Shown here: positions 23,513-42,476 of the stretch, piece after piece
Layout: the number at the start of each line of letters is the position of its first letter
Numbering within the stretch: position 1 is the stretch's first letter
Source of the DNA: Thermoproteota archaeon
Lineage (GTDB): Archaea > Korarchaeota > Korarchaeia > Korarchaeales > Korarchaeaceae
Length of the DNA stretch: 43,600 nt
Reading direction: 5' to 3'
Assembly (NCBI GenBank): GCA_027491415.1
Contig: JAOZFH010000006.1
Coordinates: 1 to 43,600 of the forward strand
Notes under the pieces: generated by a model
The model's input: only the letters and a program-made list of their open reading frames with translations
Databases searched by the model: none
What the model was told of the DNA's origin: nothing
Translations under genes and position numbers: made by a program

Positions 23513-24136
23513 ATGGCAACCGTCCCTCCGAGCTACCTGGAATACCTCATCTACGTCGACCCTGAGAGGTGCGTGGGATGTAGGAGCTGTGAGATAGCCT
23601 GCGCGGTCGAGCATTCCTCCTCGAAGGAGCTGTTTCAGGCCGTCTTCGAGGACCCTGCGCCCAGGCCGAGGACGAAGGTCGTCCCGGCAGCCGGCGTTTA
23701 CGTCCCCATGAGGTGCATGCACTGTGATCCGGCCCCCTGCGTCGAGGCCTGCCCTACGGGGGCCATGCACAGGACGGACGAGGGCTTCGTCGTATCCGAC
23801 CTCGAGAAGTGCATAGGGTGCAGGACCTGCCTCCTCGCCTGCCCCTTTGGCCACCCGACCTACGACTTTAGGAGGAAGGTGGTGAAGTGCGACCACTGCG
23901 TTGACAGGTTCCGCGTTGGACTACCGCCAGCGTGCGTCGAGGCCTGCCCGACGGGGGCCCTGAGGTACGGCAGGGCGGAGGACATCTTGGACAGGGAGAA
24001 GATCAGGAGGGCCGCGGAGATGGTGCTCGGACTTGCGGAGGCGGCCGTGGTGTACGCCAAGCCCGCCGAGAGGGCTCCCAGGTCCCCCCTGGCATCTCTC
24101 AGGGAGATGTATGAGGCCGTGAGGTGGTCAGAATGA
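23513..24136 (+). CDS. cooF: CooF-type 4x[4Fe-4S] electron-transfer protein
   Basis: CVGCRSCEIAC, CMHCDPAPCVEACP, CIGCRTCLLACP and KCDHC..PACVEACP; ATGA overlap with cooS. Confidence 0.9.
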   Translation: MATVPPSYLEYLIYVDPERCVGCRSCEIACAVEHSSSKELFQAVFEDPAPRPRTKVVPAAGVYVPMRCMHCDPAPCVEACPTGAMHRTDEGFVVSDLEKCIGCRTCLLACPFGHPTYDFRRKVVKCDHCVDRFRVGLPPACVEACPTGALRYGRAEDILDREKIRRAAEMVLGLAEAAVVYAKPAERAPRSPLASLREMYEAVRWSE

Positions 24137-26091: not shown

Positions 26092-26894
26092 TGGCCTTGC
26101 CCCTCAGGGTTCTCGTGGCCGGGAAGGGAGGGGTGGGCAAGACAACGGTGTCCGCCCTCCTCTCTCACTTTTTGCGCGACAGGGGTATGAGGGTCCTGGC
26201 GGTCGACGCCGACTCCGTTCCAAACCTGGGTATAGCGCTGGGCCTACCACCCGAGGTCGCGGGTTCCATAGTTCCCCTCGTGAGGAACGAGGAACTCGTG
26301 GAGCAGAGGACGGGCGCCCGACCCGGCCAGGCTTGGGGGGTCCTGTTTCGAGTCAACCCCAGGGTCGACGACCTGGCGGAGAGGTACGGGGTGAGCGTGG
26401 GAGGCGGCCTGAGCCTGCTGGTCGTGGGCAGCATAGACGCAGCCAAGCAGGGCTGCCTCTGTCCAGCAATTGCGCTGGCAAAGAGGCTCCTGAAGCACCT
26501 GGTCTCCTCCACCGACGAGTCGTCGGCGGTGATCGTGGACTCGGAGGCCGGAGCGGAGGTATTCGGCCGGGGGCTCGCCGAGAACTTCGATCACATGGTG
26601 TGCGTCTCCGAGCCCACGGTGGCCTCACTGGACATCTCCAAGCGCCTCCTCAGGATGGGCCGGCAGCTCGGGATCCGCGAGTTCTCCCTCATCGTCAACA
26701 AGATGCCTGAGAGAGGCGAGTCGCTCAGGGAAGCCATAGAGAGAAGGTTCTCCGGTGAGGCCAGGGCGTTTTTCGTCCCCAGCGACCCCGAGGTCCTGAG
26801 GGCGAGCATCGAGGGTAGGGGGGTGGGTACCCTCCCAGTCGACTCTCCAGCGGTCTCGGCCCTGAGGCGGACCTTCTCTGAACTGTTCGGGTGA
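26091..26894 (+). CDS. cooC: CODH nickel-insertion ATPase
   Basis: GKGGVGKTT, VDADSVPNL, GCLCP and DSEAG.E.FGRG motifs; TGATG overlap with cooS. Confidence 0.95.
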   Translation: MALPLRVLVAGKGGVGKTTVSALLSHFLRDRGMRVLAVDADSVPNLGIALGLPPEVAGSIVPLVRNEELVEQRTGARPGQAWGVLFRVNPRVDDLAERYGVSVGGGLSLLVVGSIDAAKQGCLCPAIALAKRLLKHLVSSTDESSAVIVDSEAGAEVFGRGLAENFDHMVCVSEPTVASLDISKRLLRMGRQLGIREFSLIVNKMPERGESLREAIERRFSGEARAFFVPSDPEVLRASIEGRGVGTLPVDSPAVSALRRTFSELFG

Positions 26895-26898
26895 TCAA

Positions 26899-28878
26899 AT
26901 GGAGTCGTCGGAGCCCAGGGTCGGAGTCTACGTCTGTCACTGCGGCAAGAACATCGCGGGCAAGGTGGATGTGAGGAGGGTGGCCAAGGAGGCTGGAAGG
27001 CACCCGAGAGTAGCCGTCTCTAGGGACTACTTCTTCATGTGCAGCCGGGCGGGGCAAGAGCTCATCAAGAGGGATGTGGAGGCGGGTAAGGTGGACAGGG
27101 TGGTCGTGGCGGCGTGCAGCCCCAAGCTCCACGAGCCCCTCTTCAGGAGGGTCGTGGTCGAAGCGGGCCTCAACCCCGGTTACATGGAGCAGGTGAACAT
27201 AAGAGAGCTGGTCTCCTGGTCAACCGAGGACCCCGAGGAGGCGACTCAGAAGGCCATCAGGTACGTCTTGGGGGGCGTGGAGAAGGTCCTGGCGGCTGAG
27301 CCCATCGAGGTTGGGGAGGCAGAGGTCGTTCGGGAGGCCCTAGTCATCGGAGGCGGGGTCGCTGGCCTCGCCGCGGCCTTGGACCTGGCGGAGAAGGGAA
27401 TCAGGGTTCACCTGGTGGAGCGCTCACCCACGGTGGGTGGGCTCATGGCCCTCTTGGACAGGGTGTTCCCGACCGGCGACTGCTCCCTGTGCATCCTGAC
27501 GCCCATGATGGCCGAGGCCGAGGCCCACCCACTGATCGACATCCACACCACCTCGGAGGTCGTTGAGGTATCCGGCTCGATCGGGGACTTCCGGGTGAGG
27601 GTGAGGAGAAGCCCCAGGTACGTGGATCCAGAGAAGTGCGTGGCGTGCGGGGTATGCGCCTCCAAGTGTCCTGTCGAGGTCCCGAACGAGTGGGACGCCC
27701 TCCTCGGCAAGAGGAAGGCCGCCTACATCCCGTATCCTCAGGCCACGCCGAGGGCCTACGTGATAGACCCGAACGCGTGTCTCTTCATCAGGGAGGGGTC
27801 CTGCGGGGCCTGCGTCGAGGCCTGCCCCACGAAGGCCATAGACCTCCACGAGGTGCCGCGGGAGTTCGAACTCAGGGTGGGGGCCATCGTGGTCGCAACC
27901 GGCGTCAGGGAGTACGACGCATCCAACCTCAAGAACTACGGCTTCGGGAGAATACCGGACGTGATAACCCAGCTCGGATTCGAGAGGCTGATCAACGTGA
28001 CGGGGCCCACCGGGGGGCACCTGAGGAGACCCTCGGACGGCAAGGTGCCGAAGAGAATAGTGTTCATACAGTGCGCCGGAAGCAGGGACGTGAACCACAA
28101 CCCCTACTGCTCGGGAGTGTGCTGCATGGTCTCGCTGAAGCAGGCCGAGATCGTGAGGTCCGAGTATCCGGACTCCAAGGTCTACATCTGCTACATCGAC
28201 ATGAGGACTGCGAAGAAAGGATTTGAGGAGATGTACGAGCGGGTCAGACGAGAGGGGGTAGTCTTCGTCCAGGGGAAGCCAGGGGAGGTCTGGAGGGACG
28301 GCGATGAACTAGTGGTGGAGGTGTTCGACAAGACCCTCGGCAGGAAGCTGGAGCTCAGGGCGGACCTCGTGGTGCTGGCCGCGGGATTGTCCCCGTCGGA
28401 GGGCACCCTGAAGGTTAGGGAGGTGCTCAACGTGGGAGCGGATCTCCACGGGTTCCTCCAGGAGCTCCACCCCAAGCTGAAGCCTGTGGAGACCTCTAGG
28501 CCGGGAATTTTCATCTGCGGTGGAGCCCAAGGCCCCAAGGACATCCCAGATTCGGTCGCTCAGGCGAAGGCGGCCGCCAGCGCTGCGGCTACAGTACTGG
28601 TGAGGGGGAGGGTTGAGGTCACCGGGGAGAGGGCCTACGTGGACCCGGAGCTGTGCGTCGGCTGCATGGCCTGCGCCGACGAGTGTCCGTTCGGGGCCAT
28701 CGTGGAGAGGGAAGGCAGGGCGGAGGTTGTCCCGGCCGCTTGCGCCGGCTGTGGAATCTGCCAGCCCGTCTGCCCGACCGGCGCGATAACCAGGAGGGCC
28801 TACGGGGTCGAGCAGGTGATGAGGCAGGTGGCCGGCCTCTTGGAGGCCGCGCCGACCTCGCGCGCGGGGGAGGTGTAG
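26899..28878 (+). CDS. hdrA: Heterodisulfide reductase subunit A (electron-bifurcating flavoprotein)
   Basis: GVYVCHCG, AACSP, GGGVAG, FPTGDCSLCILTP, inserted and C-terminal ferredoxin domains, QCAGSRD..YCSGVCC, GPKDIP. Confidence 0.96.
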   Translation: MESSEPRVGVYVCHCGKNIAGKVDVRRVAKEAGRHPRVAVSRDYFFMCSRAGQELIKRDVEAGKVDRVVVAACSPKLHEPLFRRVVVEAGLNPGYMEQVNIRELVSWSTEDPEEATQKAIRYVLGGVEKVLAAEPIEVGEAEVVREALVIGGGVAGLAAALDLAEKGIRVHLVERSPTVGGLMALLDRVFPTGDCSLCILTPMMAEAEAHPLIDIHTTSEVVEVSGSIGDFRVRVRRSPRYVDPEKCVACGVCASKCPVEVPNEWDALLGKRKAAYIPYPQATPRAYVIDPNACLFIREGSCGACVEACPTKAIDLHEVPREFELRVGAIVVATGVREYDASNLKNYGFGRIPDVITQLGFERLINVTGPTGGHLRRPSDGKVPKRIVFIQCAGSRDVNHNPYCSGVCCMVSLKQAEIVRSEYPDSKVYICYIDMRTAKKGFEEMYERVRREGVVFVQGKPGEVWRDGDELVVEVFDKTLGRKLELRADLVVLAAGLSPSEGTLKVREVLNVGADLHGFLQELHPKLKPVETSRPGIFICGGAQGPKDIPDSVAQAKAAASAAATVLVRGRVEVTGERAYVDPELCVGCMACADECPFGAIVEREGRAEVVPAACAGCGICQPVCPTGAITRRAYGVEQVMRQVAGLLEAAPTSRAGEV

Positions 28879-28881
28879 CGG

Positions 28882-29793
28882 ATGACCTCAGGATCAGAGT
28901 CGCCCGAAGGACCGAAGAAGCTCGTCGTCGGCTTCTGCTGCAACGAGTGCGCCTACGCGGCCGCCGACCTCGCGGGGAGCACGCACCGCACCCACCCGCC
29001 CAACGTGCTCGTGGTGAGGGTCCCCTGCTCGGGCGCGGTCGACCCGAGCTGGCTCCTCTACGCGCTGGCCAACGGTGCGGACGCGGCCTTCGTGGCCGGG
29101 TGCAGGAAGGGGGAGTGCCACTACGTGGACGGGAATCTGAAGGCCGAGAGCAGGGTGAGCTTCCTGAAGTCGCTGCTGGATGCCGTCGGGGTGGAGCCGG
29201 AGAGGGTGGAGATGTTCTTCATGGCCGCCTCCGAGCCCCACAGGTTCGTCGAGGCCGCCAGGGAGATGGCCGCCAGGGTGGAGGCGCTACCCCCACTCCA
29301 CCGGAGGGAGAGCGTGCCTGTGGGCCCCAAGAGAGAGGCGCTAATCCGCGCCCTTCAGTCCATCGCCGTGGAGGTTAGGGACGTCCCGCTGCCGGCGATA
29401 CCAGGGTTCGAGGTGCCCGTGTTCGACTTGGACAGGTGCATCGGCTGCGGGGCCTGCATCGAGGCCTGCCCCGAGGGTGCCATTCACTCCGAGGATCGCG
29501 GCGACTTCAGGGTGTTCCTCCTGTCCGCCCTCAAGTGCACCGGCTGCGGGGACTGCGTGGACGCCTGCCGGGAGAACGAGGTCGAGGCGCTCTCGCTCGG
29601 CGGGGTGAGGGTCCCACAGCTCCTGAGCGAATGGAGTGAGGTGGCTAGGCTTGAGCTGACGAGGTGTTCGGTCTGTGGGAGGCCGTTCGCCACGGATCGC
29701 GAACTCGAGAGGGCCGACTCACCTCCGATCTGCCCTGAGTGCAAGGCCAAGGCCTCTGCCAAGGCGATATCCTTTGGGAGGGTGAGATTGTGA
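28882..29793 (+). CDS. mvhD: MvhD-type [2Fe-2S] protein fused to a 2x[4Fe-4S] ferredoxin and a CxxC..CxxC tail
   Basis: GFCCNECAYAAADLAG, RVPCSG, GC..GECHY..GN; then CIGCGACIEACP, CTGCGDCVDAC and CSVC..CPEC. Confidence 0.9.
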   Translation: MTSGSESPEGPKKLVVGFCCNECAYAAADLAGSTHRTHPPNVLVVRVPCSGAVDPSWLLYALANGADAAFVAGCRKGECHYVDGNLKAESRVSFLKSLLDAVGVEPERVEMFFMAASEPHRFVEAAREMAARVEALPPLHRRESVPVGPKREALIRALQSIAVEVRDVPLPAIPGFEVPVFDLDRCIGCGACIEACPEGAIHSEDRGDFRVFLLSALKCTGCGDCVDACRENEVEALSLGGVRVPQLLSEWSEVARLELTRCSVCGRPFATDRELERADSPPICPECKAKASAKAISFGRVRL

Positions 29794-30272
29794 GCCTAGC
29801 GAAGCGCGTGCTCGAGATCTCCGGCCAGGACGTGACGAAGTGCTTCCAGTGCGCGGAGTGCACGTCCTCGTGCCCCAGCGCCGGGCTTGACGGCTTCTAC
29901 CCCCACAGGCTGATCAGGGCTATCCTCTTGGACCTGAGGGATGAGGTGTTTCGCGGGGATTACAAGCTGTGCATGCACTGCCACCTCTGCTCAGTCCGGT
30001 GCCCCGTGGGGCTGAACTTTCCAGAGGTTGCCATCGCGCTGTCCAACGTAGAAACCAAGGAGAGAGGCCCGGATAATGTGGAGCGGGCTTTCATCTCTGA
30101 ACTGAGCAAGAGAGCTTTTGTTAACCCTGCGAGGGTGGCGCTGTCCGCTCTGGGAGTTCGAGCTCTTGCGCTGGCTGGCCTACGCGGCCTGAAGCTGGCC
30201 GGCATGCTCGCCGAGTCCGGGTCGGTGAGGGAGGAGTACAGGCGGGAGGTGGCGAGGGTTGTCAGGGGATGA
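29790..30272 (+). CDS. hdrC: Heterodisulfide reductase subunit C
   Basis: CFQCAECTSSCP and CMHCHLCSVRCP; GTGA overlap with mvhD. Confidence 0.9.
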   Translation: MSLAKRVLEISGQDVTKCFQCAECTSSCPSAGLDGFYPHRLIRAILLDLRDEVFRGDYKLCMHCHLCSVRCPVGLNFPEVAIALSNVETKERGPDNVERAFISELSKRAFVNPARVALSALGVRALALAGLRGLKLAGMLAESGSVREEYRREVARVVRG

Positions 30273-31017
30273 GGTGGCCTACTATCCGGGATGCTCCGCG
30301 CTGACCACGGAGAGGCCCTACCTGAGGACCGCCGAGGTAGTGCTCGAGAGACTGGGCGTGCCCCATCGCCTAATAGACGACGCGCCCTGCTGCGGGACCG
30401 TCGAGCTGGAGATGGTGGACAGGCGGGCCTCTCGGAGGGTAGCGGAGATCGTCGCGGAGGTGGCGGACGGGGCGACCCTCGTCACAGGGTGTTCCGGGTG
30501 CTATGGGACCCTCAGGAGAAGTGGAGTCGGAGTCACGCACCTGATCGAGTTCCTCGGCAGGAGGGTCGGGGCAGAGGAGATTGCAAGGAGGGTGGTCAGG
30601 AGCTGGCCCGTCAAGGTCGCCCCCTACTACGGCTGCCAGGCACTGAGGCCGAGAGAACAAGCCATCGATGACCCCGAGGATCCTCAAATCCTGGAGGAAC
30701 TCATGGCGGCCATCGGCGCCGAGCCCGTGGACTTCAGGATGAGGATCAAGTGCTGCGGCGGACCGATTCTCCTCCGCCGGCCCGAGTATGCCAAGCAAAT
30801 GGCCAGATCCGTTCTGGAGTCGGCCAGGGAGGCAGGGGCGGAGTGCGTTGTCACCATATGCAACCTCTGCCACTTCATGCTGGACTTCTACGGGGGAGGG
30901 GTCCTACCAGTGCTCCACGCGACCCAGCCGATCGCCTACGCTCTCGGGGAGCCCGTCGATGGTCTGGGGCTCGAGGAGCACTTCACTCCCGTACCCGGGG
31001 GGCTGTTCCACCCGTGA
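30259..31017 (+). CDS. hdrB: Heterodisulfide reductase subunit B
   Basis: Two CCG domains: YPGC..CCG..CSGC and YYGC..CCGG..CNLC. Confidence 0.92.
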   Translation: MSGDEVAYYPGCSALTTERPYLRTAEVVLERLGVPHRLIDDAPCCGTVELEMVDRRASRRVAEIVAEVADGATLVTGCSGCYGTLRRSGVGVTHLIEFLGRRVGAEEIARRVVRSWPVKVAPYYGCQALRPREQAIDDPEDPQILEELMAAIGAEPVDFRMRIKCCGGPILLRRPEYAKQMARSVLESAREAGAECVVTICNLCHFMLDFYGGGVLPVLHATQPIAYALGEPVDGLGLEEHFTPVPGGLFHP

Positions 31018-31077
31018 CCCAGGCCCTCCTCCACGCCCCCAATTTCTTTGAGTCGCGCGTCGAGGGAGGTGATCGCC

Positions 31078-31269
31078 GTGTGTGAGGGAGTCGCCCTGCT
31101 GATCTCCTCAAGTTCTGAGAAGACCGTCATGGAGGAGGTGGTCTCAGTCAGCATCAGTGGGGGTAGAATCACCCTCGTGAACGAGGATGGAGACGTGTTG
31201 GAACTCCTGGGCGTTAAGGAAGTCTTGGTCGACCTGATAAGGCACCGAGTGATGATAGTCACTGAGTAG
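31078..31269 (+). CDS. cooT: CooT nickel-binding protein
   Basis: Starts M-C-E after a GGAGGTGA SD; VMEEV and VDLIRHRV motifs; 63 aa. Confidence 0.85.
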   Translation: MCEGVALLISSSSEKTVMEEVVSVSISGGRITLVNEDGDVLELLGVKEVLVDLIRHRVMIVTE

Positions 31270-31505
31270 CCAGGCCAGACCCTCAAATCATGCTTTCAGG
31301 TTCAGGAAGAGCGCCTATGCCGGACCGATTAGATTGGACGGAGCGGAAGCATGGGGGGACTCCCGGCCGATCCCCCCGCAACCTGTGCGTGGAGTACGGT
31401 CATCAAGTCGCCCGATTTTGCTCTTAAAGACCAAGAATGACCGACAGAGGCTGTTGGGGGAACCACACTAAGAAAATTTTTGGATTTGGCTGAGTTCCCC
31501 TCCGC

Positions 31506-32345
31506 GTGTTTCATCGGGGTGTCCTATGGTCAGTCGGAGCCGCCGTCCTGTGGGGCATTGAGCCCGTCTTAGTCGACGAAGCGATGGATGAGTTTACGTC
31601 AGTTTCGATAAACGCCTGGAGGAACCTAGGGGCCCTCATGTTCTGCCTGCCGGCGGCGCTCCTCCTTGTCCCGAGCTTTCATCTTGAACTCGCCCCCTTG
31701 GCAATGATAGCCGCCTCCGGGGTCCTCAGCCAGGGGCTGGGGATGTACTTCTACTCCGAGGCGATCCACAGGGCGGGCCCCGGGAAGGCCATTCCGATAG
31801 TCCAGACCTTCATATTCTGGGCACAGCTCCTGGGATTCTTCCTCTTCGGCGAGGTACTTACCCTAGCCACCCTAGCGGGCGTCTTTCTGACTATTCTAGG
31901 GGTCTGGCTGGTCACGTGCGGGGGCGGGAGGGACGACCCGCTCGGCGTCGCCGCAGCCCTTCTTACCTCCGTGCTCTGGGCAGGCGGAGACGCCCTGACG
32001 AGGGCCGCCCTCTTCGACGTCTCGCCCATAGAGACGAGCGCCTGGAGGTCGCTCATGATGTTCGCGATGTTCTATGTCCTGGCCACTAAGACCAGCGGTC
32101 TCAGGGCGAGCAGGCGGTGTACGTGGCTCGCGCTAGTCAGCGGAGTGCTGGGGCTGGGGTTGGCCCTGTTCATGTACTTCCTTGCCATGTCCAGGGTGGG
32201 TCTATCCCTGGCCGCCCTGCCAATCTCCCTCAGCCCCATAATCTCCCAACTGACATCGTGGAAGGCTGGCAGGGAGAAGCTCGGTCCAAAGATGCTGCTG
32301 GGTGGGTCTCTCGTGGCCACGGGAATAGCCCTGGCCTCTCTGTGA
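31506..32345 (+). CDS. DMT/EamA family transporter
   Basis: Two roughly 140-aa hydrophobic repeats with LWG, LFGE.L and REKL motifs. Confidence 0.85.
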   Translation: MFHRGVLWSVGAAVLWGIEPVLVDEAMDEFTSVSINAWRNLGALMFCLPAALLLVPSFHLELAPLAMIAASGVLSQGLGMYFYSEAIHRAGPGKAIPIVQTFIFWAQLLGFFLFGEVLTLATLAGVFLTILGVWLVTCGGGRDDPLGVAAALLTSVLWAGGDALTRAALFDVSPIETSAWRSLMMFAMFYVLATKTSGLRASRRCTWLALVSGVLGLGLALFMYFLAMSRVGLSLAALPISLSPIISQLTSWKAGREKLGPKMLLGGSLVATGIALASL

Positions 32346-32438
32346 ACGTCGGCCTCTACGACAGTCCCAGCGGGCGTCCCGCTGGACAACTCCAGAACTT
32401 TTTAGGAACCGGTTAGCCACGCGGTTGGGGGGAGGCTA

Positions 32439-33431
32439 GTGAACCTTCTGGACCTCGTTCTGTCTAGGGAGAAGAGGATGGCCGCTCCTCTCGTTACCTA
32501 TCCCGCCCTAAAGCTACTCGGGGCTGATGTAGATCAGGCCCTCGGCGATCCCGAGATCCACTCTGAGGCGGCTAAGCTGACTCTGACCGAGTTCGGCTTG
32601 GACATGATGCTACCGCTGATGGACCTCACTGTCGAGGCTGAGGCGATGGGAGTCAAGGTAAGGATGTCGCCAACGGAAGCGCCGACGGTGGTTGAGCACC
32701 TCTCGATGGAGGAAGCCTTGGCCATGGCTATTGCCAACCTCCCCGACCCTGAGAGGGATGCCAGGTTTCCGGACTTCCTCAGGGCGGCCGAGCTGATGAG
32801 GTCGAAGTGCCCAAGGGAGATCCCGCTTGGGTTCTACCTGCTAGGTCCTTTCACCTTGGCGGGGCAGCTGGTCGGCGTCACAACCCTCCTCAAGGCAGTC
32901 AGGAGGGATCCCGAGTCAGTTTCGCAGCTCGTTGAGATGTGCACGGAGGTGCTGGCTAGGTACGCGGATGGCCTGGCTCAGCGAGGGGTTGACTCTCTAG
33001 TTATGGCGGAGCCCACGGCGGGGCTCGTCTCGAGAGAGGACTACGTCAGGTTCTCCGGGAATCCCACTGCTGAGCTCACGTCTCGAGTTCCGTCTCAGTG
33101 GATCCTCCATATCTGCGGCAGGTCGGGGCACCTCGTGGACCTAATGGCTCAGACGGGGGTGGTCGGGGTGAGCTTAGATCACAATGTGGATCTCTTAGAG
33201 GCCGCCGAGAAGGTGTCGGACGAGATACTGCTCGTCGGGAACTACTCGCCGGTGAAGGTCGCAATGGAATCCGCAGACGTGATCAGGCAAGAGGTAAGGG
33301 ATCTGTTAGAGAGGCTCTCGTCCATTCCAAACCTGATATTCAGCACAGGGTGCGACGTGCCAATGAGGGCCCCGCTAGAGAACGTGAAAATTCTAGCGGA
33401 GGTCGCGCACGAGTTTTCCCAGCCTTCCTGA
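32439..33431 (+). CDS. UroD/MtaA-CmuA family methylcobamide:thiol methyltransferase (MT2)
   Basis: DLTVEAEAMG, GPFTLAG, Zn ligands LHICG and STGCDVP; corrinoid gene context. Confidence 0.88.
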   Translation: MNLLDLVLSREKRMAAPLVTYPALKLLGADVDQALGDPEIHSEAAKLTLTEFGLDMMLPLMDLTVEAEAMGVKVRMSPTEAPTVVEHLSMEEALAMAIANLPDPERDARFPDFLRAAELMRSKCPREIPLGFYLLGPFTLAGQLVGVTTLLKAVRRDPESVSQLVEMCTEVLARYADGLAQRGVDSLVMAEPTAGLVSREDYVRFSGNPTAELTSRVPSQWILHICGRSGHLVDLMAQTGVVGVSLDHNVDLLEAAEKVSDEILLVGNYSPVKVAMESADVIRQEVRDLLERLSSIPNLIFSTGCDVPMRAPLENVKILAEVAHEFSQPS

Positions 33432-33434
33432 CTT

Positions 33435-33460
33435 TCAAAAGACGTCAAAAGATTTAAAAC
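33435..33460 (+). promoter_or_regulatory. BRE/TATA promoter with a tandem repeat and no downstream + strand CDS
   Basis: TCAAAAGA twice (33435, 33445) then TTTAAAA (33453-33459), about 29 nt before the hairpin start. Confidence 0.55.
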
Positions 33461-33481
33461 TCCCTTTCGACATGCGGATTC

Positions 33482-33546
33482 GGCCGGGGGACCCACCCTA
33501 GGCTAACCCCTCAGGCTAGCCTCCCCCCGGTGGGAATCCCCCGGCC
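33482..33546 (+). ncRNA. Candidate structured small RNA
   Basis: Nested stems GGCCGGGGGA/TCCCCCGGCC, CCCACC/GGTGGG and AGGCTA/TAGCCT between convergent genes, starting at the expected distance from a TATA box. Confidence 0.6.
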
Positions 33547-33614
33547 TGGCGTTAATTCCTATCCTAGGATTGTCAAATTTCATCGATTGATGACTCGGCC
33601 TCTCTGGTTGCCGG

Positions 33615-34562
33615 TCACCGGAGCCTCTTGTACGGCTTCCCCAGTGACGCGGGACCCTTCACACCCCTGCCCACGATCACCAGCGCTATCAGGGTCAGCA
33701 GATAGGGGAGCATCAGGGCGAACTGATAGGGGAACCACGCAAGTGTGAGCAGACCGCTCGCTTGGATCCGTAGCTGGAGCGAGTCAGCGAACGCGAACAG
33801 CAGAGTACCTAGAGTCATCTTCAGCGGGTCCCACCTGCCTAGGATTATCATGGCTATCACGATGAATCCCCGGCCAGCGGTCATGTTGTCGAGGAACATG
33901 TTGTACTGGGAGATCGACAGCAGTGCTCCGGCCACACCTCCTAGCGCGCCCTCCGCTAAGAGGGTGAGATATCTGAGCCTCACGACGTCGACTCCTAGGT
34001 AGTCAGCCACCTGTGGATCCTCTCCCGACGCGGTTATCTCGAGGCCTACCCTGGTCCTCGCTAGCACGAAGTAGAGCAGCGGGATGCTGAGCAGCGCGGC
34101 GTAGGTGAAGGCGGTCTGGTTGAAGAGCACCGGGCCTATCACGGGTATAGAGCTAAGGAGGGGAATCGGGGTCTCCCTGATGACAGTCGTCACGTGCGGT
34201 GGAACGGGGCTCGTGTACCAGCCGAATATCGCCCTGTACAGGTAGAACGTCGCTCCAGACGCCATCAGCGTCAGCGCCAAACCCGTCACAACTTGGTCGA
34301 GTGCGAGAGAGACCGTCATGAACCCAAAAATCGCGTTGGCAGCCATCCCCACCAGAATGGCCGCCAGGACTCCAATCCACGGGCTCCCCGTGTAGTACGT
34401 GACGATGAATCCGGAGAACGCGCCGAGGAGCATGATGCCCTCGAGCCCGAGGTTCAAGATGCCGCACCTCTCCACCAGGATTTCCCCAGCCCCCGCCAGG
34501 AGGAGCGGGGTCATCACCCGCACGGCAGCCCTCATAAGGTCGATCGCCATCTCAATCGGCAC
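33615..34562 (-). CDS. ABC transporter permease (nucleoside/purine CUT2 type)
   Basis: ERCGILNLGLEG, GE.P..AD..G, GRGFI and LPYLLT motifs. Confidence 0.9.
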   Translation of the reverse strand: MPIEMAIDLMRAAVRVMTPLLLAGAGEILVERCGILNLGLEGIMLLGAFSGFIVTYYTGSPWIGVLAAILVGMAANAIFGFMTVSLALDQVVTGLALTLMASGATFYLYRAIFGWYTSPVPPHVTTVIRETPIPLLSSIPVIGPVLFNQTAFTYAALLSIPLLYFVLARTRVGLEITASGEDPQVADYLGVDVVRLRYLTLLAEGALGGVAGALLSISQYNMFLDNMTAGRGFIVIAMIILGRWDPLKMTLGTLLFAFADSLQLRIQASGLLTLAWFPYQFALMLPYLLTLIALVIVGRGVKGPASLGKPYKRLR

Positions 34563-35601
34563 TCTCAACCACCTCCTTACGGAAGATCCTCTCACTGATC
34601 GGTTCGCTGGCGACGGCGAACACTATCACGAGCCCCTGTATCAGGTAGGCCATACCCACGGGGATGTGAGCCATGCGGTGCATCGTGTAGCTCCCGTTAA
34701 TTACCGCGCCCATGAAGATGGAGGCCAGAAGGACGCCAACGGCGTTCAGGTTCCCCAGGAGCGCCACTGCGATTCCCGTGAACCCGTATCCCGGAGAGAG
34801 CTCCATCCTCATCTTGTGTTGTATGGCGGAGACCTCGATTCCACCCGCTAGGCCAGCGAGGAGGCCGCTGATAAGCATGCTCAGGACCACTATACTCCCT
34901 ATGTCCGTCCCCGAGTACCGCGCGGCCTCCGGGTTGGCGCCCACGAGCTTGAGCCTGAATCCGAAGGTCGTCTTCTCCCTCAGGAAGTGGACTATGGGTG
35001 TTATCACTAGGATGGCCACCAGGATCCCAAGGTGGAGCCTCACACCCTGGACGAGGCGGGGCATCCAAAGTGACTGAGGTAGAGTTGGCGACTCCGGGAA
35101 CTGGGACACCGGGTCCCTTAGCGGACCCGTGAGGAAGTAGCTAACGAGGTAGAGGGCGATGTAGTTCATGATCACGGTGGTGAAGATCTCGTTGATCTCG
35201 TACTTGGCTCTGAGAACCGCGGGGATGAGCGCCCACGCGGCTCCGGCTAGGGCCGAGGAGAGGAGCATCACAGTGAGGCCGACGGAGCTGGGCAGCCCCC
35301 CTAGGGAGAGGCCGACCCACGCTGCAACGAGCCCGCCCATGTAGAGCTGACCCTCAGCTCCTATGTTCCAGACCCTGGCCGTGAACGCCACGGCCAATCC
35401 GAGACTCACCAGCAGGATCGGCGTGGCCCTGACCAGCGTCTCTACAGCCGTTACGGAGTTCCCGAACGCCCCCTTTACGAACATGTAGTAGTAGGCCCTC
35501 ACCGGGTTGGCGCCCGCCAGCCCGATGAACAGGCTCGCCGTCAGGAGCGCCAGGCCTATGGCAATCAGGGAACCCAGCACCCTGCTAAGCCTGAGGGCCA
35601 T
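34552..35601 (-). CDS. ABC transporter permease (nucleoside/purine CUT2 type)
   Basis: WNIGAEGQ, GANPEAARYSG and GYGFTGIAVALLG motifs. Confidence 0.9.
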   Translation of the reverse strand: MALRLSRVLGSLIAIGLALLTASLFIGLAGANPVRAYYYMFVKGAFGNSVTAVETLVRATPILLVSLGLAVAFTARVWNIGAEGQLYMGGLVAAWVGLSLGGLPSSVGLTVMLLSSALAGAAWALIPAVLRAKYEINEIFTTVIMNYIALYLVSYFLTGPLRDPVSQFPESPTLPQSLWMPRLVQGVRLHLGILVAILVITPIVHFLREKTTFGFRLKLVGANPEAARYSGTDIGSIVVLSMLISGLLAGLAGGIEVSAIQHKMRMELSPGYGFTGIAVALLGNLNAVGVLLASIFMGAVINGSYTMHRMAHIPVGMAYLIQGLVIVFAVASEPISERIFRKEVVESAD

Positions 35602-35623
35602 CAGGCTCTCTCCACCATCGACG

Positions 35624-37153
35624 CTATCGCCCAACAACCTCACCTCCCAGCATGTAGGTACCTATCTCCTGAGCGGTCATCTGGCCAGCAGGCCGTATCG
35701 CAACCATCCTCCCGTCGTACATCACCCCTATCACGTCGCTGAGCTCGAGGATCTCATCCAGATCGGTCGACACGAGGAGTATGGCCGCACCGCCATCCCT
35801 GAGTCTTATCAGCATTTCCCGGACGAAGTTCGTCGACTTCACGTCCAGCCCGGCGGTCGGGTTCTCGGCGACGACGAGGCGTGCGTTCATGGAGAGTTCC
35901 CGCCCGACGATGAGCCTCTGGATGTTTCCGCCGGAGAGATACCTGACGGGGATGTCGATTCCTGGACACTTCACCTTGAATGTCTCGACGATCTTGGAGC
36001 AGAACTTCCTCAGAACCTCCCCCTTGATAATCCCCCGTTCACTGAAGGGGTTAACCCAGAACCTCTTCAAGGCGGAGTTGTCTACTACCGGGAGATCGGC
36101 CGCCACACCCCTTTCTATCCTCTCCTCCGGGATGTACGCCATCCCCATCTCTATGAGCTCGGAGACACTTCTCCCGGTGATATCCTGCCCGATAAACAGT
36201 ATGCGGCCGGACTTGACCGGCCTGAGTCCTGTTATGGCCTCGACCAACTCCTTCTGACCGTTACCCTCTATCCCGGCTATCCCGAAGATCTCCCCCTCGT
36301 GCACCGTAAAGGAGACTCCCTTCACCGCCAGCCCGCCCCGGTCCCCCTCCACCCGAAGGTTCTCAACCCGCAGGATCTCCTCGGCCGTCTCCTTAGGCTT
36401 CGCCCTCTCTACGCGAGTGGGTGCCACACGCTCTCCGACGACCAGCGCGACGAGTTCTTTGTCGTCCACCTCCTCCGGCTTTACCCGCGCCACGACCCTG
36501 CCCTTTCTCATCACGGTGATCCTATCGCTGATGGAGAGGGCCTCCCACATCTTGTGTGTCACGAACACGACAGACTTGCCCTGCTCTACCATGCTCCTGA
36601 GGGTCTCAAACAGGGCCTCGACCTCAGGCACCGCGAGTATTGAGGTGGGCTCGTCGAAGATGAGGACGTCGGCGTTCCTGTAGAGCAGCCTTAGGATCTC
36701 GACCCTCTGCTTCTCTCCCGCTGAGAGCTGGTCTATCTTGGCTTCTGGATCTACTTTGAGCCCGACGCTCTCTGAGAGCTCTCTGATTCTTTCTTTCGCC
36801 TCCTCTAGGTTGAGGAGGTGCGGGAGGTCGCTCATCCCCAGAATGATGTTCTCTGCCACAGTCAAGTTGGGAATTAGGGTGAAGTGCTGGTGGACCATCC
36901 CTATCCCAAGGTTCATAGCATCTCTGGGGCTCCTGATGTCCACCTTCCTGCCCTTGACGTAGATCTCGCCCTCATCCGGCCTGAGGCATCCTGCGAGAAT
37001 TTTCATTAGAGTGGTCTTGCCAGCGCCGTTCTCCCCCAGCAGGGCGTGTATCTCCCCCCTCCTCAGGTCGAAATCGACCCCCCTGTTGGCCACGACCCCG
37101 CCAGGGTACACCTTCACGATTCCCTTCATCAGAACGACTTCTTCTGTGCCCAT
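35624..37153 (-). CDS. ABC transporter ATP-binding protein, tandem-domain CUT2 type
   Basis: GENGAGKTT, GMVHQHF, DEPT and LSGGNIQ motifs. Confidence 0.93.
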   Translation of the reverse strand: MGTEEVVLMKGIVKVYPGGVVANRGVDFDLRRGEIHALLGENGAGKTTLMKILAGCLRPDEGEIYVKGRKVDIRSPRDAMNLGIGMVHQHFTLIPNLTVAENIILGMSDLPHLLNLEEAKERIRELSESVGLKVDPEAKIDQLSAGEKQRVEILRLLYRNADVLIFDEPTSILAVPEVEALFETLRSMVEQGKSVVFVTHKMWEALSISDRITVMRKGRVVARVKPEEVDDKELVALVVGERVAPTRVERAKPKETAEEILRVENLRVEGDRGGLAVKGVSFTVHEGEIFGIAGIEGNGQKELVEAITGLRPVKSGRILFIGQDITGRSVSELIEMGMAYIPEERIERGVAADLPVVDNSALKRFWVNPFSERGIIKGEVLRKFCSKIVETFKVKCPGIDIPVRYLSGGNIQRLIVGRELSMNARLVVAENPTAGLDVKSTNFVREMLIRLRDGGAAILLVSTDLDEILELSDVIGVMYDGRMVAIRPAGQMTAQEIGTYMLGGEVVGR

Positions 37154-37214
37154 ACCCACTCACCGGAGCGGCTGAGCGGTTTTATCTGGAAAAAGGGGGT
37201 GGTGAGAGGGATTT

Positions 37215-38240
37215 TTACCCTCCACCAGCCCAGCGCTCGGGATCCCAGTCCTCGTAGATGGGGACTTGGATCTCGCCGTTGAGTATCTTCTGCTGGGCTT
37301 CTTCCACAGCTGCAACGACGTCCTGTGGGATCTGCTTCTTGAGGGTCGGATTCCAGACGAGCTTAGCCCACCCCTCTTTCATGCCCCAGTTGATTATCCC
37401 TCCGTGGAATGTGCCAGCCCTCACGGAGTCCACCACGTAGCGAACGAACGGCTTGAGATCCCAAGTAACGCTTGCGATGACCACATCCGGCGCGAGGTCG
37501 GTCTGGTTGACGATGTTACCGATCGCGTAGCCCTCGACGCCTGCCTCCTTGAAGGCCTCGAAGACACCGTACCTCTCTGCGTAGATCACGTCGGCTCCAG
37601 CCTCTATCTCGGCGAGGGCCGCCTCTTTAGCCTTGACCGGATCAAACCAACTCTCGAGGAAGATCACCTTGATCTCCACATCCGGGTTGACCGACTTGGC
37701 CCCTGCGCAGAACGCGTTGACGAGCCTGTTGACGTCGGGCACCGGGTATGCCGTGACCACGCCAATGACGTTGGTCTTCGTGAGCTTACCGGCTAATACT
37801 CCAGCCAGGTAAGCCGCGTCCTGGATCCAGTAGTCGTACAGCATCACGTTGGGCGGCCACTCGACGTCTGTGGGGCCAGAGCCTTGGGCGAAGTACACGT
37901 TCGGAAACTCCTTGGCCAGCTTTCTGGTTACCTCGTTGTACCCCCAGCTGTGGGGAAATATCACCTGATATCCCTCGGCTATGTACTCCCTTATCACCCT
38001 CTCCACGTCCGCCGTGTCCACCTTCTCCGTGTAGACGTACTCGATGTTCAGCTCCTGCTCGGCCCAGGTCATAGCCTCGTGCAGGGCAGTGTTCCAAGGC
38101 TCCTCTATGGGGGTCACGTAGATGACAGCCACCTTGAGCTTCTCCTCCTGGGGCGCTGAACCCTTGGTTGCAAAGTAGGCCCCGGCGGCCACCAAAACTA
38201 TGAGGACGGCCACAATAATGCCCAAGTACCTGCTACTCAG
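37215..38240 (-). CDS. BMP-family substrate-binding protein
   Basis: N-terminal TM anchor, AYLAGVLAG, NAF.AGA and WFDP.K.KEAA motifs; start is CTG 38240 (good SD) or TTG 38225. Confidence 0.9.
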   Translation of the reverse strand: MSSRYLGIIVAVLIVLVAAGAYFATKGSAPQEEKLKVAVIYVTPIEEPWNTALHEAMTWAEQELNIEYVYTEKVDTADVERVIREYIAEGYQVIFPHSWGYNEVTRKLAKEFPNVYFAQGSGPTDVEWPPNVMLYDYWIQDAAYLAGVLAGKLTKTNVIGVVTAYPVPDVNRLVNAFCAGAKSVNPDVEIKVIFLESWFDPVKAKEAALAEIEAGADVIYAERYGVFEAFKEAGVEGYAIGNIVNQTDLAPDVVIASVTWDLKPFVRYVVDSVRAGTFHGGIINWGMKEGWAKLVWNPTLKKQIPQDVVAAVEEAQQKILNGEIQVPIYEDWDPERWAGGG

Positions 38241-38394
38241 GCTGCCTCCCCCCTAAGGCTGAGCCTCTAGGCTCGGATGCTTTTAAACTATGGTAGTCGG
38301 TCAGAACAATACCTCTGACTGTTTAACTTCAGCTGATCTCCTTTCTGATGATCCATCTCTCTGAGGCCGTCTCCTAAGCTTCGGATCTCGTGAG

Positions 38395-40344
38395 TCAGAC
38401 CAACCTCGACTTGAGCTTCTCCAATAGGTTCTTGTGCCTATCGGCGACGACGAGGCCGTCCATCTTCTCCACAACCTCTTGGAAGCGGAACAGGTCAAGG
38501 TGAGGCAGGTACATAGAGGCCATGAACTCCTCTTGGAACCTGGGATGAGCCGCCAGTTCATAATACCTGATCTTCTGCGCGATTTCCCAGCACTCTCTTC
38601 TCTTGTCGATTGATATGAGAGCAACCCTTGCTCCTACACCAGCAGCGTTTCCCACCTGCGTTATCTTCTCCAGTGGAAAGTCTGGCAGCATCCCGATCCT
38701 CTTGGCGCTGGCTGGGTCGATGTAGAGCCCAAACGCCCCTGCCATGAACACCCGCTCCACGTCCTTCACAGAAACCCCCATTTCGCTCATGAGGATCGAG
38801 GCCCCGGTGTGCATGGCCGCCTTCGCCTTCTGGAGCTCTCTGACGTCCCGCTGCGTGATCACTATATCCTTCCCAATTGCCGTCTCGTCTGCAAAGGCCA
38901 GGATGAACTCCATTCCGTCTGGTCCCTTTCTGATCCTCTCATGCTCGCGCTCCAGTATCTTGCCGGTCGTGTCTATCACTCCGGCGCTCAACATCTCTGC
39001 TAGGGCGTCCACGATGCCCGACCCACAGATCCCCTTCGGGCTCACCCCGTCTACCACAGAGTATTTCACGTCGAGGGTGTTGGGGTCGATCCACACCCTC
39101 TCGATGGCCCCTGAGGTGGCCCTCATCCCGAACTTTATGTGAGCTCCCTCGAAGGCCGGCCCGGATGCGCAAGAGACCGCGTGCATCTCATCCGAATTTC
39201 CTATCACGATCTCTGTGTTAGTACCCACGTCTATCATGAAGGAGAGTTCGCTTGACAGGTGAATTCCCGTGCTGAGCACATCAGCCACAGCGTCCGCCCC
39301 AACAAAGCCGGCGACGTTGGGCAGCAGGTGAACGTTTCCAGTTGGGAGCATCTCCACTCCAAGGTCACAGGCCCTAACATCGAGCGGGCTGTCGATCACT
39401 GGGGTGTAAGGCGCCTCAGCCAAGTCACGGGGGGGGAGACCCAAGAAGAGGTGGTGCATGAGCGTGTTGCCAGCCACTACGAGTTCGACGACCAGCCTCG
39501 GGTCGACTCGGGCAGACTCGCAGGCCTCACGAATGAGGCCGTTGATTCCCTGAATGATCACCCTATGAAGCTCTCTGAACCCCTCTTCCGTCCTGCTGTG
39601 AGCTATCCTGGCGATGACGTCTTCTCCAAACGGAATCTGTGGGTTGGGAGCGGAGGAGACGGAGACCAGCTCGCCGCTCCGCAGGTCCACTAGATAGCCC
39701 GCCAGCTTTGTCGTCCCTATGTCTACGGCGAATCCGTAGAGTCTCTCATCTTCTCCCGGTCTCACGTCTAGCAACCCGACATCCGTATGCCACACTATCG
39801 TGACGGTCCAGTTTCCCTTCTTGACGGCACGTGGGAGGTACCTCAGCACACGCAGATCCGCCCGAAGGCTTCCTTTGTGGGGGAGTTTACTGATCAGGCG
39901 TTCGAAGTGAGCCCTCGGGTCGCTGAGACTGGGCTTTGGGAGCTTTAGAACAGCGATGTGGGCGGCAGGGTTGAGCTCGACTTCTACATGCTTGCCCTCA
40001 ACAAGCAACCTCTGCCTCCCGCTTCTACTCTGCTCCGGAACTTCCACGACAACCTTTCCCCTGCCAGAGAACCTGGCCTGGCACGCCAGCCTGAACCCGG
40101 CCCTCAGCTCACCTGGTTCCAGGTACCTCTCTTCGCTAGAGCTTGGAGGGCTCAGCAACTCTCTCCCCTCTCTGATTATCACCTTGCACTTCCCACAGAG
40201 TCCGAGTCCTCCACAAATTGACGTTATATCGACTCCCAGGTCTTTAGCGGCCTCCAAGATGGTTTTGTCAGTAGAATACCACCCTCGGCGGCCTTCAGGT
40301 TGAAAAATGGCTAGGAGACCCCGTTTCTTGGTTGGATAATCCAT
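38395..40344 (-). CDS. ASKHA-type reductive activator of corrinoid proteins (RACo/DUF4445) with N-terminal [2Fe-2S] domain
   Basis: CGGLGLCGKC..RLACQ, DIGTTK, GFVGAD, DVGTNTE, GPAFEG, GICGSG, AGAFG and GNAA motifs. Confidence 0.93.
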   Translation of the reverse strand: MDYPTKKRGLLAIFQPEGRRGWYSTDKTILEAAKDLGVDITSICGGLGLCGKCKVIIREGRELLSPPSSSEERYLEPGELRAGFRLACQARFSGRGKVVVEVPEQSRSGRQRLLVEGKHVEVELNPAAHIAVLKLPKPSLSDPRAHFERLISKLPHKGSLRADLRVLRYLPRAVKKGNWTVTIVWHTDVGLLDVRPGEDERLYGFAVDIGTTKLAGYLVDLRSGELVSVSSAPNPQIPFGEDVIARIAHSRTEEGFRELHRVIIQGINGLIREACESARVDPRLVVELVVAGNTLMHHLFLGLPPRDLAEAPYTPVIDSPLDVRACDLGVEMLPTGNVHLLPNVAGFVGADAVADVLSTGIHLSSELSFMIDVGTNTEIVIGNSDEMHAVSCASGPAFEGAHIKFGMRATSGAIERVWIDPNTLDVKYSVVDGVSPKGICGSGIVDALAEMLSAGVIDTTGKILEREHERIRKGPDGMEFILAFADETAIGKDIVITQRDVRELQKAKAAMHTGASILMSEMGVSVKDVERVFMAGAFGLYIDPASAKRIGMLPDFPLEKITQVGNAAGVGARVALISIDKRRECWEIAQKIRYYELAAHPRFQEEFMASMYLPHLDLFRFQEVVEKMDGLVVADRHKNLLEKLKSRLV

Positions 40345-40417
40345 CCAACCATCGTTATGGTTCAACTAACTATAATAGTTTGATCCCCTTGCCCCCGGTA
40401 GGCAGGGTGGGTCTGCC
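40345..40417. promoter_or_regulatory. Divergent promoter region with two short palindromes
   Basis: AACCAT-cgtt-ATGGTT (40347-40362) and AACTAT-a-ATAGTT (40368-40380). Confidence 0.5.
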
Positions 40418-41074
40418 ATGAGTGAGGGGGAGGCTATCCTGAGGGGTTTAGCCGAGTCTGTGATCGATGGCGACGAGGACCGCGCGCGGGAGTTTGCAAA
40501 GAAAGCGGTCGATGCCGGGATAGACCCGCTGACAGCGATAAAGGAGGGTCTCATGAGTGGCATGAAGGTGGTCGGCGACCGGTTCTCCCGGCTTGAGATC
40601 TTCCTTCCCGAGGTTCTTCTCGCCGCAGACGCCATGAAGGCGGCTCTTGAGATTCTGGAGCCGCTCATAGTGAAGGAAGAGAGGGAAAAGCTCACGCTGG
40701 GTAAGGTGGTCATAGGCACAGTGCAGGGCGACATCCACGACATCGGGAAGAACATCGTGGCCATGCTGCTGAAGGCGAACGGCTTCGAGGTTTACGACCT
40801 CGGCAGAGACGTTCCAATAGACGAGTTCATCAACAAGGCCGAGGAGGTCGGGGCAGACATAATCGCGATTTCGACCCTCCTGTCGACCTCAATGCCGTAC
40901 ATGGAAGATGTGATAAGGCTCCTGAAGGACAGGGGGCTTAGAGAGAAGTATAAGGTTATGGTGGGCGGAGGTCCCGTCACGAGGGAATTCGCGGAGGAGA
41001 TAGGAGCGGACGGGTACGGGGACAACGCCGAGGAGGCCGTCGAGGTGGCCAAGAAGCTCCTTGGGAGGGCGTGA
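40418..41074 (+). CDS. Methyltransferase cognate corrinoid protein (MtmC/MtbC/MttC family)
   Basis: FLPEVLLAADAM cap, GDIHDIGKNIV (DxHxxG), DLG.DV and MVGGGP motifs. Confidence 0.95.
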   Translation: MSEGEAILRGLAESVIDGDEDRAREFAKKAVDAGIDPLTAIKEGLMSGMKVVGDRFSRLEIFLPEVLLAADAMKAALEILEPLIVKEEREKLTLGKVVIGTVQGDIHDIGKNIVAMLLKANGFEVYDLGRDVPIDEFINKAEEVGADIIAISTLLSTSMPYMEDVIRLLKDRGLREKYKVMVGGGPVTREFAEEIGADGYGDNAEEAVEVAKKLLGRA

Positions 41075-41077
41075 AAA

Positions 41078-42448: not shown

Positions 42449-42476
42449 TCCGCCCATCCACGACGTGGTGATCCTC

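Follow-up and report, generated by a model that had tools for sequence, protein, structure and literature searches.

Experimentally defined trans-acting small RNAs (sRNAs) of archaea are few and, in two reports, come mostly from Methanosarcina, with others from Haloferax and Sulfolobus (PMC3510493, PMC5867862). According to the first, sRNA162 of Methanosarcina mazei base-pairs with an mRNA and masks its ribosome binding site (RBS), acting on cis- as well as trans-encoded mRNAs (Jager et al. 2012, PMC3510493); it pairs through an unstructured linker and reaches methyltransferase/corrinoid operons indirectly, by way of the regulator MM2441. Similarly, the second, a review, describes sRNA154 and sRNA41 of M. 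mazei as carrying anti-RBS loops that repress translation, sRNA41 acting on several RBSs of one module (PMC5867862). Here we analyse a 65-nt hairpin in a 43,600-nt stretch of DNA (the window) from a Thermoproteota archaeon of the family Korarchaeaceae, the plus strand of which is a candidate antisense sRNA directed mainly at the start of a corrinoid protein gene further along the same contig. A comparable use of loops is found in bacteria, where the C-rich-loop sRNAs of Firmicutes, such as RsaE/RoxS, pair their unpaired C-rich loops (motif UCCC) with the G-rich Shine-Dalgarno sequences (SDs) of several mRNAs.

The candidate is like sRNA162 in being an archaeal RNA proposed to mask an RBS in a methyltransferase/corrinoid-operon setting. 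It differs in that its pairing region is enclosed in a hairpin, that the corrinoid mRNA would be a direct target and that the two RNAs have no sequence relation; moreover sRNA162 has been shown experimentally, whereas the candidate is predicted only. With sRNA154 and sRNA41 it has in common that its loops carry anti-RBS sequence, but those RNAs serve nitrogen metabolism and ACDS (acetyl-CoA decarbonylase/synthase) and belong to another organism, sequence and pathway, whereas the candidate has one outstanding in-silico target and no homologue among the genomes searched. Unlike the bacterial RsaE/RoxS type, it has no Rfam match, and it would owe its specificity mainly to the 27-nt copy of a single target. 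A limited literature search did not find direct sRNA control of a corrinoid-protein/methyltransferase operon.

Complementarity, fold and promoter-like element

The core of the hairpin is an inverted copy of the start of the corrinoid protein gene, and the first-pass annotation had proposed from this and three further complementarities, to the corrinoid SD region and to the start regions of the MT2 and BMP genes, that one sRNA coordinates the translation of three transcription units of its own module. All four complementarities were reproduced at their positions (Table 1), as were the 65-nt hairpin itself and the TATA-like TTTAAAA preceding it. Taken together, the hairpin matches the corrinoid start region, 6.9 kb away, at 27/28 positions in the core and 10/10 in the SD region, and a 10-mer match so near the main match is unlikely to be due to chance. 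In blastn the corrinoid match is the best non-self hit of the spacer genome-wide (23 nt, 96 %, E 5e-4), and the BMP and MT2 matches are singly at genome background (E 1.5 and 5.7).

The shuffle check that had been proposed with the original claim came out in favour of the matches as a group. When 1000 dinucleotide-preserving shuffles of 33482-33548 were compared with the genome, the spacer being masked, the corrinoid score (39.1 bits) was reached anywhere in the genome by 6/1000. In C22:26400-40600 (C22 is the contig of the window) the real sequence has three hits of at least 25.6 bits, and among the shuffles 99 had one such hit, 6 had two and none of the 1000 had three. The gene set for the start-region scans comes from a crude caller of our own (1834 open reading frames, ORFs, picked by GC content at third codon positions, GC3, with the start taken as that of the longest ORF); the scans omit 24-32 genes too near contig ends and include untranscribed upstream DNA. 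Within -30 to +36 of the start, GGGGGAGGC is present in 9/1834 predicted genes, three of them being MT2, BMP and the corrinoid gene. GGGGGGAGGC has 31 occurrences in the genome, both strands counted, including 32427 (+), 33528 (-) and 38253 (-).

Table 1. Coordinates of the hairpin, its predicted target sites and the neighbouring genes (positions are those of the window; nt, nucleotides; BRE, B recognition element)
Feature	Position	Strand	Basis or remark
EamA transporter	31506-32345	+	Pfam
MT2 Shine-Dalgarno and GTG start, weak/uncertain target	32427-32439	+	13/13 with 33516-33528; duplex -29.1 kcal/mol
MT2-type URO-D methyltransferase (MT2)	32439-33431	+	Pfam
Spacer, 183 nt	33432-33614		between convergent MT2 and ABC-permease genes; houses the hairpin
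Three T4 tracts, possible ABC operon terminator	33459-33456, 33450-33447, 33440-33437	-	same DNA as + strand BRE/TATA
BRE/TATA-like 16-mer ending TTTAAAA (33453-33459)	33444-33459	+	11.5 bits; predicted start ~33483
65-nt hairpin, candidate sRNA body	33482-33546	+	stable fold, no Rfam family
Outer stem	33482-33497 paired with 33529-33546	+	16 bp; AA bulge 33535-33536
Inner stem-loop	33500-33522	+	fold
Antisense core, inverted copy of corrinoid codons 3-12	33501-33527	+	duplex energy -53.8 kcal/mol
C6 internal loop, proposed seed for target G run	33523-33528	+	P(unpaired) 1.0; opening cost 0.0 kcal/mol
Possible sRNA 3' tail, two small hairpins	33547-33593	+	fold of 33470-33600
ABC operon permease	33615-34595	-	Pfam
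ABC operon second permease	34552-35643	-	Pfam
ABC operon ATPase	35624-37159	-	Pfam
BMP/PnrA-type binding protein (BMP) of ABC operon	37215-38225	-	Pfam
BMP/ABC mRNA 5' end (G6AGGC...), moderate/uncertain target	38236-38253	-	18 pairs, one bulge, with 33510-33528; duplex -39.4 kcal/mol
RACo-type reductive activase (RACo)	38395-40365	-	Pfam
Corrinoid Shine-Dalgarno region	40404-40413	+	10/10 with 33490-33499; duplex energy -19.6 kcal/mol
Corrinoid protein, first gene of corrinoid-MtmB-MtmB operon	40418-41074	+	Pfam B12-binding_2 and B12-binding
Corrinoid codons 3-12, main predicted target site	40426-40453	+	complementary to 33501-33527, one mismatch and one extra base
MtmB-family gene 1	41078-42448	+	covers Pfam MtmB positions 2-447 of 450
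MtmB-family gene 2	from 42465 (seen to 43598)	+	Pfam

Hairpin and corrinoid gene disagree at two positions, the sixth G of the run and the G that stands for T in CTAG/CTAT. At both of them the hairpin agrees with MT2 and BMP, and on that account it can be regarded as the "hub" of four copies, a pattern that would suit an antisense RNA with several targets and a consensus motif of the sense strand equally well. The N-terminus of the corrinoid protein conforms to a pattern seen across 5 orthologues in other genomes, where a helix of the type x-E-[IL]-L-x-[GR]-L precedes the G-D motif; because the corrinoid copy encodes this conserved helix, it is the constrained copy and that of the hairpin the derived one. 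The 3' end of 16S rRNA, the anti-Shine-Dalgarno, reads ...GGATCACCTCCC and was taken from genomes of the same genus and family because the organism's own 16S gene (C52:32092-32887) is cut by a contig end, leaving only model positions 4-828.

The hairpin is unusually stable on either strand. Its plus strand folds at -44.5 kcal/mol (z -5.06) and its minus strand at -51.5 kcal/mol (z -5.07), with 0/200 shuffles equally good in both cases, and it ranks 9 of 2258 inverted-repeat windows genome-wide by stability, being among the few intergenic ones. As had been noted at first pass, the inner stem is better on the minus strand, where its 10 pairs run without interruption; two of them are G-U pairs, which on the plus strand turn into C-A mismatches. 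The claim that the C6 run and ACCCCUC both sit in unpaired loops stood for the former and in part for the latter: in the plus-strand ensemble C6 has a probability of being unpaired, P(unpaired), of 1.0, and ACCCCUC as a whole is only partly open (0.72), the apical CCUCA standing at 0.98. A seed is thus accessible by thermodynamic prediction, and by the same kind of prediction it takes 10.8 kcal/mol to open the antisense core while the outer stem remains closed (9-11 across estimates). No match was obtained from Rfam 15 for the whole window at the gathering threshold; ranked by E-value over 33380-33680, the best sub-threshold model was SorX (13.8 bits against a threshold of 46.6, E 0.97), and ARAGORN found no tRNA or tmRNA in the window. 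H/ACA guide RNAs have ACA directly 3' of a hairpin, and C/D guide RNAs have RUGAUGA ... CUGA at their ends; a guide RNA of either class was rejected by inspection, with no ACA 3' of the stem on either strand and no C/D box pair around the hairpin.

A position weight matrix was trained on the upstream regions of 40 stable RNAs (39 tRNA genes and 5S rRNA). It finds a BRE/TATA 16-mer of 9.3-19.1 bits in 37/40 of these regions, mostly starting at -36 to -42, and the other 3 score at most 2.3. The 16-mer before the hairpin scores within this range at an offset of -39 from 33483, the hairpin base (33482 is the first paired base). It has the 11-mer AAGATTTAAAA in common with the 5S rRNA promoter, in which the first T of TTTAAAA stands 31 nt before the 5S 5' end, and the candidate keeps the same spacing. 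TTTAAAA occurs 30 times in the genome; 26 of these are intergenic, 13 of which have a same-strand gene start 18-75 nt downstream. Sites of at least 11.5 bits number 367 genome-wide. Of these, 78 fall within genes' coding sequence, and among the 289 intergenic ones 163 have a gene start at most 150 nt downstream. The best minus-strand promoter site in the spacer reaches 7.7 bits, and the BMP and corrinoid promoters have 7.2 and 6.4 bits, with predicted starts at ~38256 and ~40399. MT2 has no promoter site above 6 bits and may be co-transcribed with EamA. No run of at least four T follows the plus-strand hairpin, which says little because only 10/40 stable-RNA genes carry such a run within 50 nt.

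Target ranking and proposed mechanism

Raw interaction energies proved to be a poor statistic in a GC-rich genome. Among 15,215 seed-containing windows, the raw duplexfold ranks were corrinoid 10, BMP 488 and MT2 2729, and the list was dominated by long imperfect GC duplexes, energies of -75 to -85 kcal/mol being common genome-wide. Over the start regions (-35 to +45) of 1810/1834 predicted genes, the ranks were corrinoid 6, MT2 14 and BMP 49 by cofold gain, and corrinoid 2, BMP 8 and MT2 45 by core duplex energy. An accessibility score approximating IntaRNA, which replaced an earlier scan using the single best duplex per gene, adds to the duplex energy the cost of opening the sRNA (the outer stem may stay closed) and the target, taking the best of up to 6 suboptimal duplexes. 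By this score the corrinoid gene ranks 1 of 1804 genes at -21.8 kcal/mol, the next gene standing at -16.6. With mRNAs cut at their predicted starts, the corrinoid gene gives -29.7 and BMP -10.2 kcal/mol (BMP start ~38256), and the net energy for MT2 is -7.0 kcal/mol in the operon context and +2.3 if its mRNA starts at ~32425.

In these models there is one outstanding target, the corrinoid gene, and the standing of MT2 and BMP depends on the measure used; extended complementarity to the target start exceeds background for the corrinoid gene, by rank as well as by shuffles, and not for MT2 or BMP. The genome-wide ranking that the first-pass annotation had put forward as a check therefore bears out only part of its proposal. 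An antisense sRNA is upheld in silico by the promoter-like element, the accessible C-rich loops and the corrinoid rank; MT2 and BMP are not clear targets, and the coordination of three transcription units by one sRNA is not supported in the form proposed, the two additional genes not ranking clearly above the Shine-Dalgarno-driven background.

We tentatively favour, at a little short of even confidence, a promoter-driven, trans-encoded antisense sRNA read from the plus strand, whose principal target would be the start of the corrinoid-MtmB operon and for which MT2 and BMP would be weak, anti-Shine-Dalgarno side targets. What the analysis shows are the relations between the sequences, the fold, the likeness to a promoter and the in-silico ranking, and the transcription of the RNA, its pairing and its repression of translation are all inferred. 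In the proposed mechanism, the BRE/TATA promoter of the element would start a lineage-specific RNA at the base of the hairpin, where the 16-bp outer stem would serve as scaffold and the inner 27 nt would present two unpaired C-rich loops, C6 and the apical CCUCA. Pairing would begin between the C6 loop and the G run in the mRNA, the inner 6+2-bp stem would then open at a cost of ~11 kcal/mol, and a 27-bp duplex would form over +9 to +36 of the corrinoid mRNA, blocking initiation and thereby repressing the corrinoid-MtmB-MtmB operon. For both corrinoid duplexes to exist at once, the outer stem would have to open and the two helices would have to take up a bent arrangement. As the copied stretch reads G5AGGC by coincidence, the RNA would also act as an anti-Shine-Dalgarno mimic and pair more weakly with the unusual G6AGGC SDs of MT2 and BMP/ABC. 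It would in addition be fully complementary to the 3' untranslated region (UTR) of the ABC operon.

A more elaborate version, which we hold to be rather unlikely, describes the birth of an sRNA: a 28-nt inverted micro-copy of the corrinoid start would have arisen in a scaffold hairpin behind a stable-RNA-type promoter and would now act as hub regulator and, as the copied codons resemble a strong SD by coincidence, as 16S-tail mimic, tying together the translation of the three units of a methyl-transfer and transporter module (corrinoid-MtmB, MT2, BMP/ABC) while being cis-antisense to the ABC 3' UTR. It draws on the two departures of the hairpin from the corrinoid gene that match MT2 and BMP, as expected under multi-target tuning.

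A number of results weigh against the favoured sRNA. In the accessibility ranking MT2 and BMP stand at only 134 (-5.9 kcal/mol) and 139 (-5.8 kcal/mol) of 1804. In a pseudoknot-free cofold of the best 3,500 of the 15,215 windows, the corrinoid gene was 14th, BMP 133rd and the gain for MT2 0.0 kcal/mol; this method cannot model pairing within a closed loop and forces the outer stem open. The two differences between hairpin and corrinoid gene are a C-U mismatch and a bulge, with no wobble pairs. The 10-mer matching the SD region (33490-33499) sits in the closed outer stem, with a P(unpaired) of 0.21, and the two duplexes are permuted in order, not colinear. The minus strand folds 7 kcal/mol better than the plus strand, and a search for RNA runs with the locus listed none for either strand.

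The comparative search points the same way. A DNA search of 33300-33750 in 41 genomes returned the sequence itself, the internal corrinoid match and one 33-nt match inside the permease gene, with the hairpin in 0/40 other genomes. A single-sequence covariance model recovered only the own copy in 40 genomes of the class (0/39 others), and a degenerate 23-mer pattern of the motif had 0 matches in metagenome and genome contig collections; none of these searches found a homologue of the hairpin. A protein search of the same collections with MT2 found no relative. On these results the hairpin element is lineage-specific. The nearest syntenic locus is in a genome of the same genus (G003), where MT2 is 55-56 %, RACo 54 %, the corrinoid protein 72 % and MtmB 65 % identical. 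It has neither the hairpin nor the ABC operon, and its corrinoid start region, the DNA of which differs at codons 3-12, has no antisense partner in its own genome (best non-self matches 15 and 14 nt, E 0.6 and 2.2). A DNA sequencing run (X1, 9 % of sampled words, 80 % likeness on 31000-43600) yielded short contigs from a roughly 90-95 % identical relative, which cover the ABC, RACo and corrinoid genes in part; bins 32684-33525 were uncovered, making the run uninformative on the hairpin.

Competing accounts of the hairpin

The main rival, unlikely in our judgement yet to be taken seriously, is that the hairpin is only a 3'-end structure, RNA-stabilising or terminating, of the ABC mRNA and possibly of the convergent MT2 mRNA, the corrinoid likeness being a young functionless micro-duplication. 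Like terminators between convergent genes, it is a GC-rich stem-loop with T tracts downstream on the minus strand, and it occupies a 183-nt spacer between such genes. The stronger minus-strand fold with its two strand-specific G-U pairs and the absence of the hairpin from the relatives searched are as this account would have it. The three T4 tracts downstream on the minus strand, whose positions relative to the permease stop are +155, +164 and +174, count for it and against an sRNA: among genes with a downstream gap of at least 60 nt, a T4 tract is present in 180/576, and at least three tracts in 14/576. MT2 has no T4 tract in the spacer, and for this reason both strands probably read through the hairpin. 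However, the tracts start 22 nt past the stem and 155 nt past the stop, the genome median for the first T4 being 31 nt past the stop. Intrinsic-type terminators were scanned for as a GC-rich stem with a T-rich run within 0-2 nt, and 33300-33750 had 0 such sites on either strand. Nor would a terminator need a 27-nt copy of the start of another gene, and the account leaves the corrinoid match unexplained, as well as why the same block of AT is, on the other strand, a good stable-RNA-type promoter at exactly -39. The two readings could hold side by side, the same hairpin serving as antisense sRNA and as 3' end of the ABC operon.

The alternative that the first-pass annotation had itself raised, namely that G5-6AGGC(T)A(G/T)CCTGAG is a motif shared by the sense strands of the module (an unusually long SD or the site of an RNA- or DNA-binding regulator) with a fourth copy in the ABC 3' UTR, strikes us as improbable. 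If the hairpin is assigned to the ABC operon, every copy is indeed in sense orientation, and the consensus of the four is identical with the copy in the hairpin; the rarity of GGGGGAGGC at gene starts, with three of its nine cases here, fits as well. The BMP copy lies at the predicted 5' end of its mRNA, and in BMP and the corrinoid gene an in-frame CTG follows at Shine-Dalgarno distance. Against this, the position of the motif relative to the start varies: it is -12 in MT2, -28 from the TTG of BMP and +9 in the corrinoid gene, where it is ordinary coding sequence of the conserved helix. The long identity of 28 nt exists only between hairpin and corrinoid gene, whose two changes weaken rather than preserve the stem of the minus-strand hairpin, and no candidate binding protein was identified.

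Since the BMP site 38236-38253 is also a direct repeat of the minus-strand copy in the hairpin, a recombination scar was considered, in which the 4.7-kb ABC operon, flanked by direct repeats of 18-19 bp (33510-33528, 38236-38253), would have entered between MT2 and RACo. Both repeats point the same way and together enclose the operon in full; in G003, MT2 and RACo are convergent and only 25 nt apart (locus L043, G003:C30 10530-10556), corresponding to 33432-38394 here; and the best orthologue of the permease in 39 other genomes of the class has 49 % identity. We consider the scar highly doubtful all the same: it explains neither the stronger corrinoid match nor the 13/13 match to MT2, the GC3 of the ABC genes (0.77-0.81) resembles that of their neighbours, and the Pfam-annotated neighbourhood has no integrase or mobile-element gene. 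Finally, chance complementarity driven by Shine-Dalgarno-like G runs, for which the background-level BMP and MT2 hits and the frequency of strong imperfect duplexes would speak, is already very unlikely given the shuffles and the fact that three of the nine genes with GGGGGAGGC at the start lie within one 8-kb stretch.

Gene neighbourhood and significance

The source genome has 1.78 Mb in 63 contigs at 63 % GC. The corrinoid gene is followed by two tandem MtmB-family genes, which have in common a 173-nt stretch of 79 % identity; because no in-frame stop interrupts either (41078-42448, 42465-43598), both appear from sequence to be non-pyrrolysine MtmB homologues. The best promoter-like site of RACo (12.3 bits at 40385, minus strand) has a predicted start at ~40346, and since this is downstream of the longest-ORF TTG at 40365, the true start codon probably lies further in. 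The RACo and corrinoid promoters are back to back and overlapping (40346-40385 region). Upstream of the methyl-transfer module there is a redox cluster (23513-31017) that encodes a 4Fe-4S protein, a CO dehydrogenase/prismane-family protein (24124-26091), an HdrA-like flavoprotein (26899-28878), an MvhD/FlpD-like protein (28882-29793) and HdrC- and HdrB-like (CCG domain) proteins (29739-31017). A radical-SAM/helix-turn-helix fusion protein is encoded at 22223-23446.

In genus g3, corrinoid genes are found within 5-15 kb of a BMP-type ABC operon; the order of genes at these loci is different and their BMP proteins are only 27-34 % identical, and they could not be used as homologous loci. Their proximity hints that the ABC transporter imports a methylated substrate.

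The start of the BMP gene shows some peculiarities of its own. On the minus strand, its ORF lacks any ATG, GTG or TTG from an in-frame TAG (38255-38253) up to the TTG at 38225. Read from this TTG, the membrane anchor has no preceding positive residue; the only arginine (in SSRYLG) is found upstream, after an in-frame CTG at 38240-38238 that stands 4 nt behind the G6AGGC SD, and translation may thus begin at this CTG. A CTG likewise stands 4 nt behind G5AGGC in the corrinoid gene, where it is in frame as codon 8. The palindrome GAGCCT-N2-AGGCTC (38261-38274), located between the TATA box of BMP (38287-38281) and the start predicted at ~38256, is the sole intergenic one of 6 in the genome and may be an operator at which a repressor controls the ABC operon. 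As operators of a wider regulon, this palindrome and AGGCTAGCCT were rejected, both being too rare elsewhere in the genome.

No second example of the same design was seen among the intergenic hairpins and orphan promoter sites inspected in the genome. Another very stable intergenic hairpin, C27:85043-85122 (locus L095, C27:84900-85300), has a long uninterrupted GC-rich stem and the loop UUCCUCCCCCGA, which looks anti-Shine-Dalgarno-like; it has no Rfam match.

As no more than a 3'-end structure that contains a relic copy, the hairpin would be an ordinary element. The proposed masking of an RBS has precedent in the archaeal sRNA162, sRNA154 and sRNA41. Should the antisense reading be true, the hairpin would represent a switch that acts directly and post-transcriptionally on a methyl-transfer module of the non-pyrrolysine MtmB type in an uncultured archaeon, built on an anti-Shine-Dalgarno hairpin design that resembles the bacterial C-rich-loop sRNAs, and it would clearly exemplify how a regulator can be derived from the target on which it acts.

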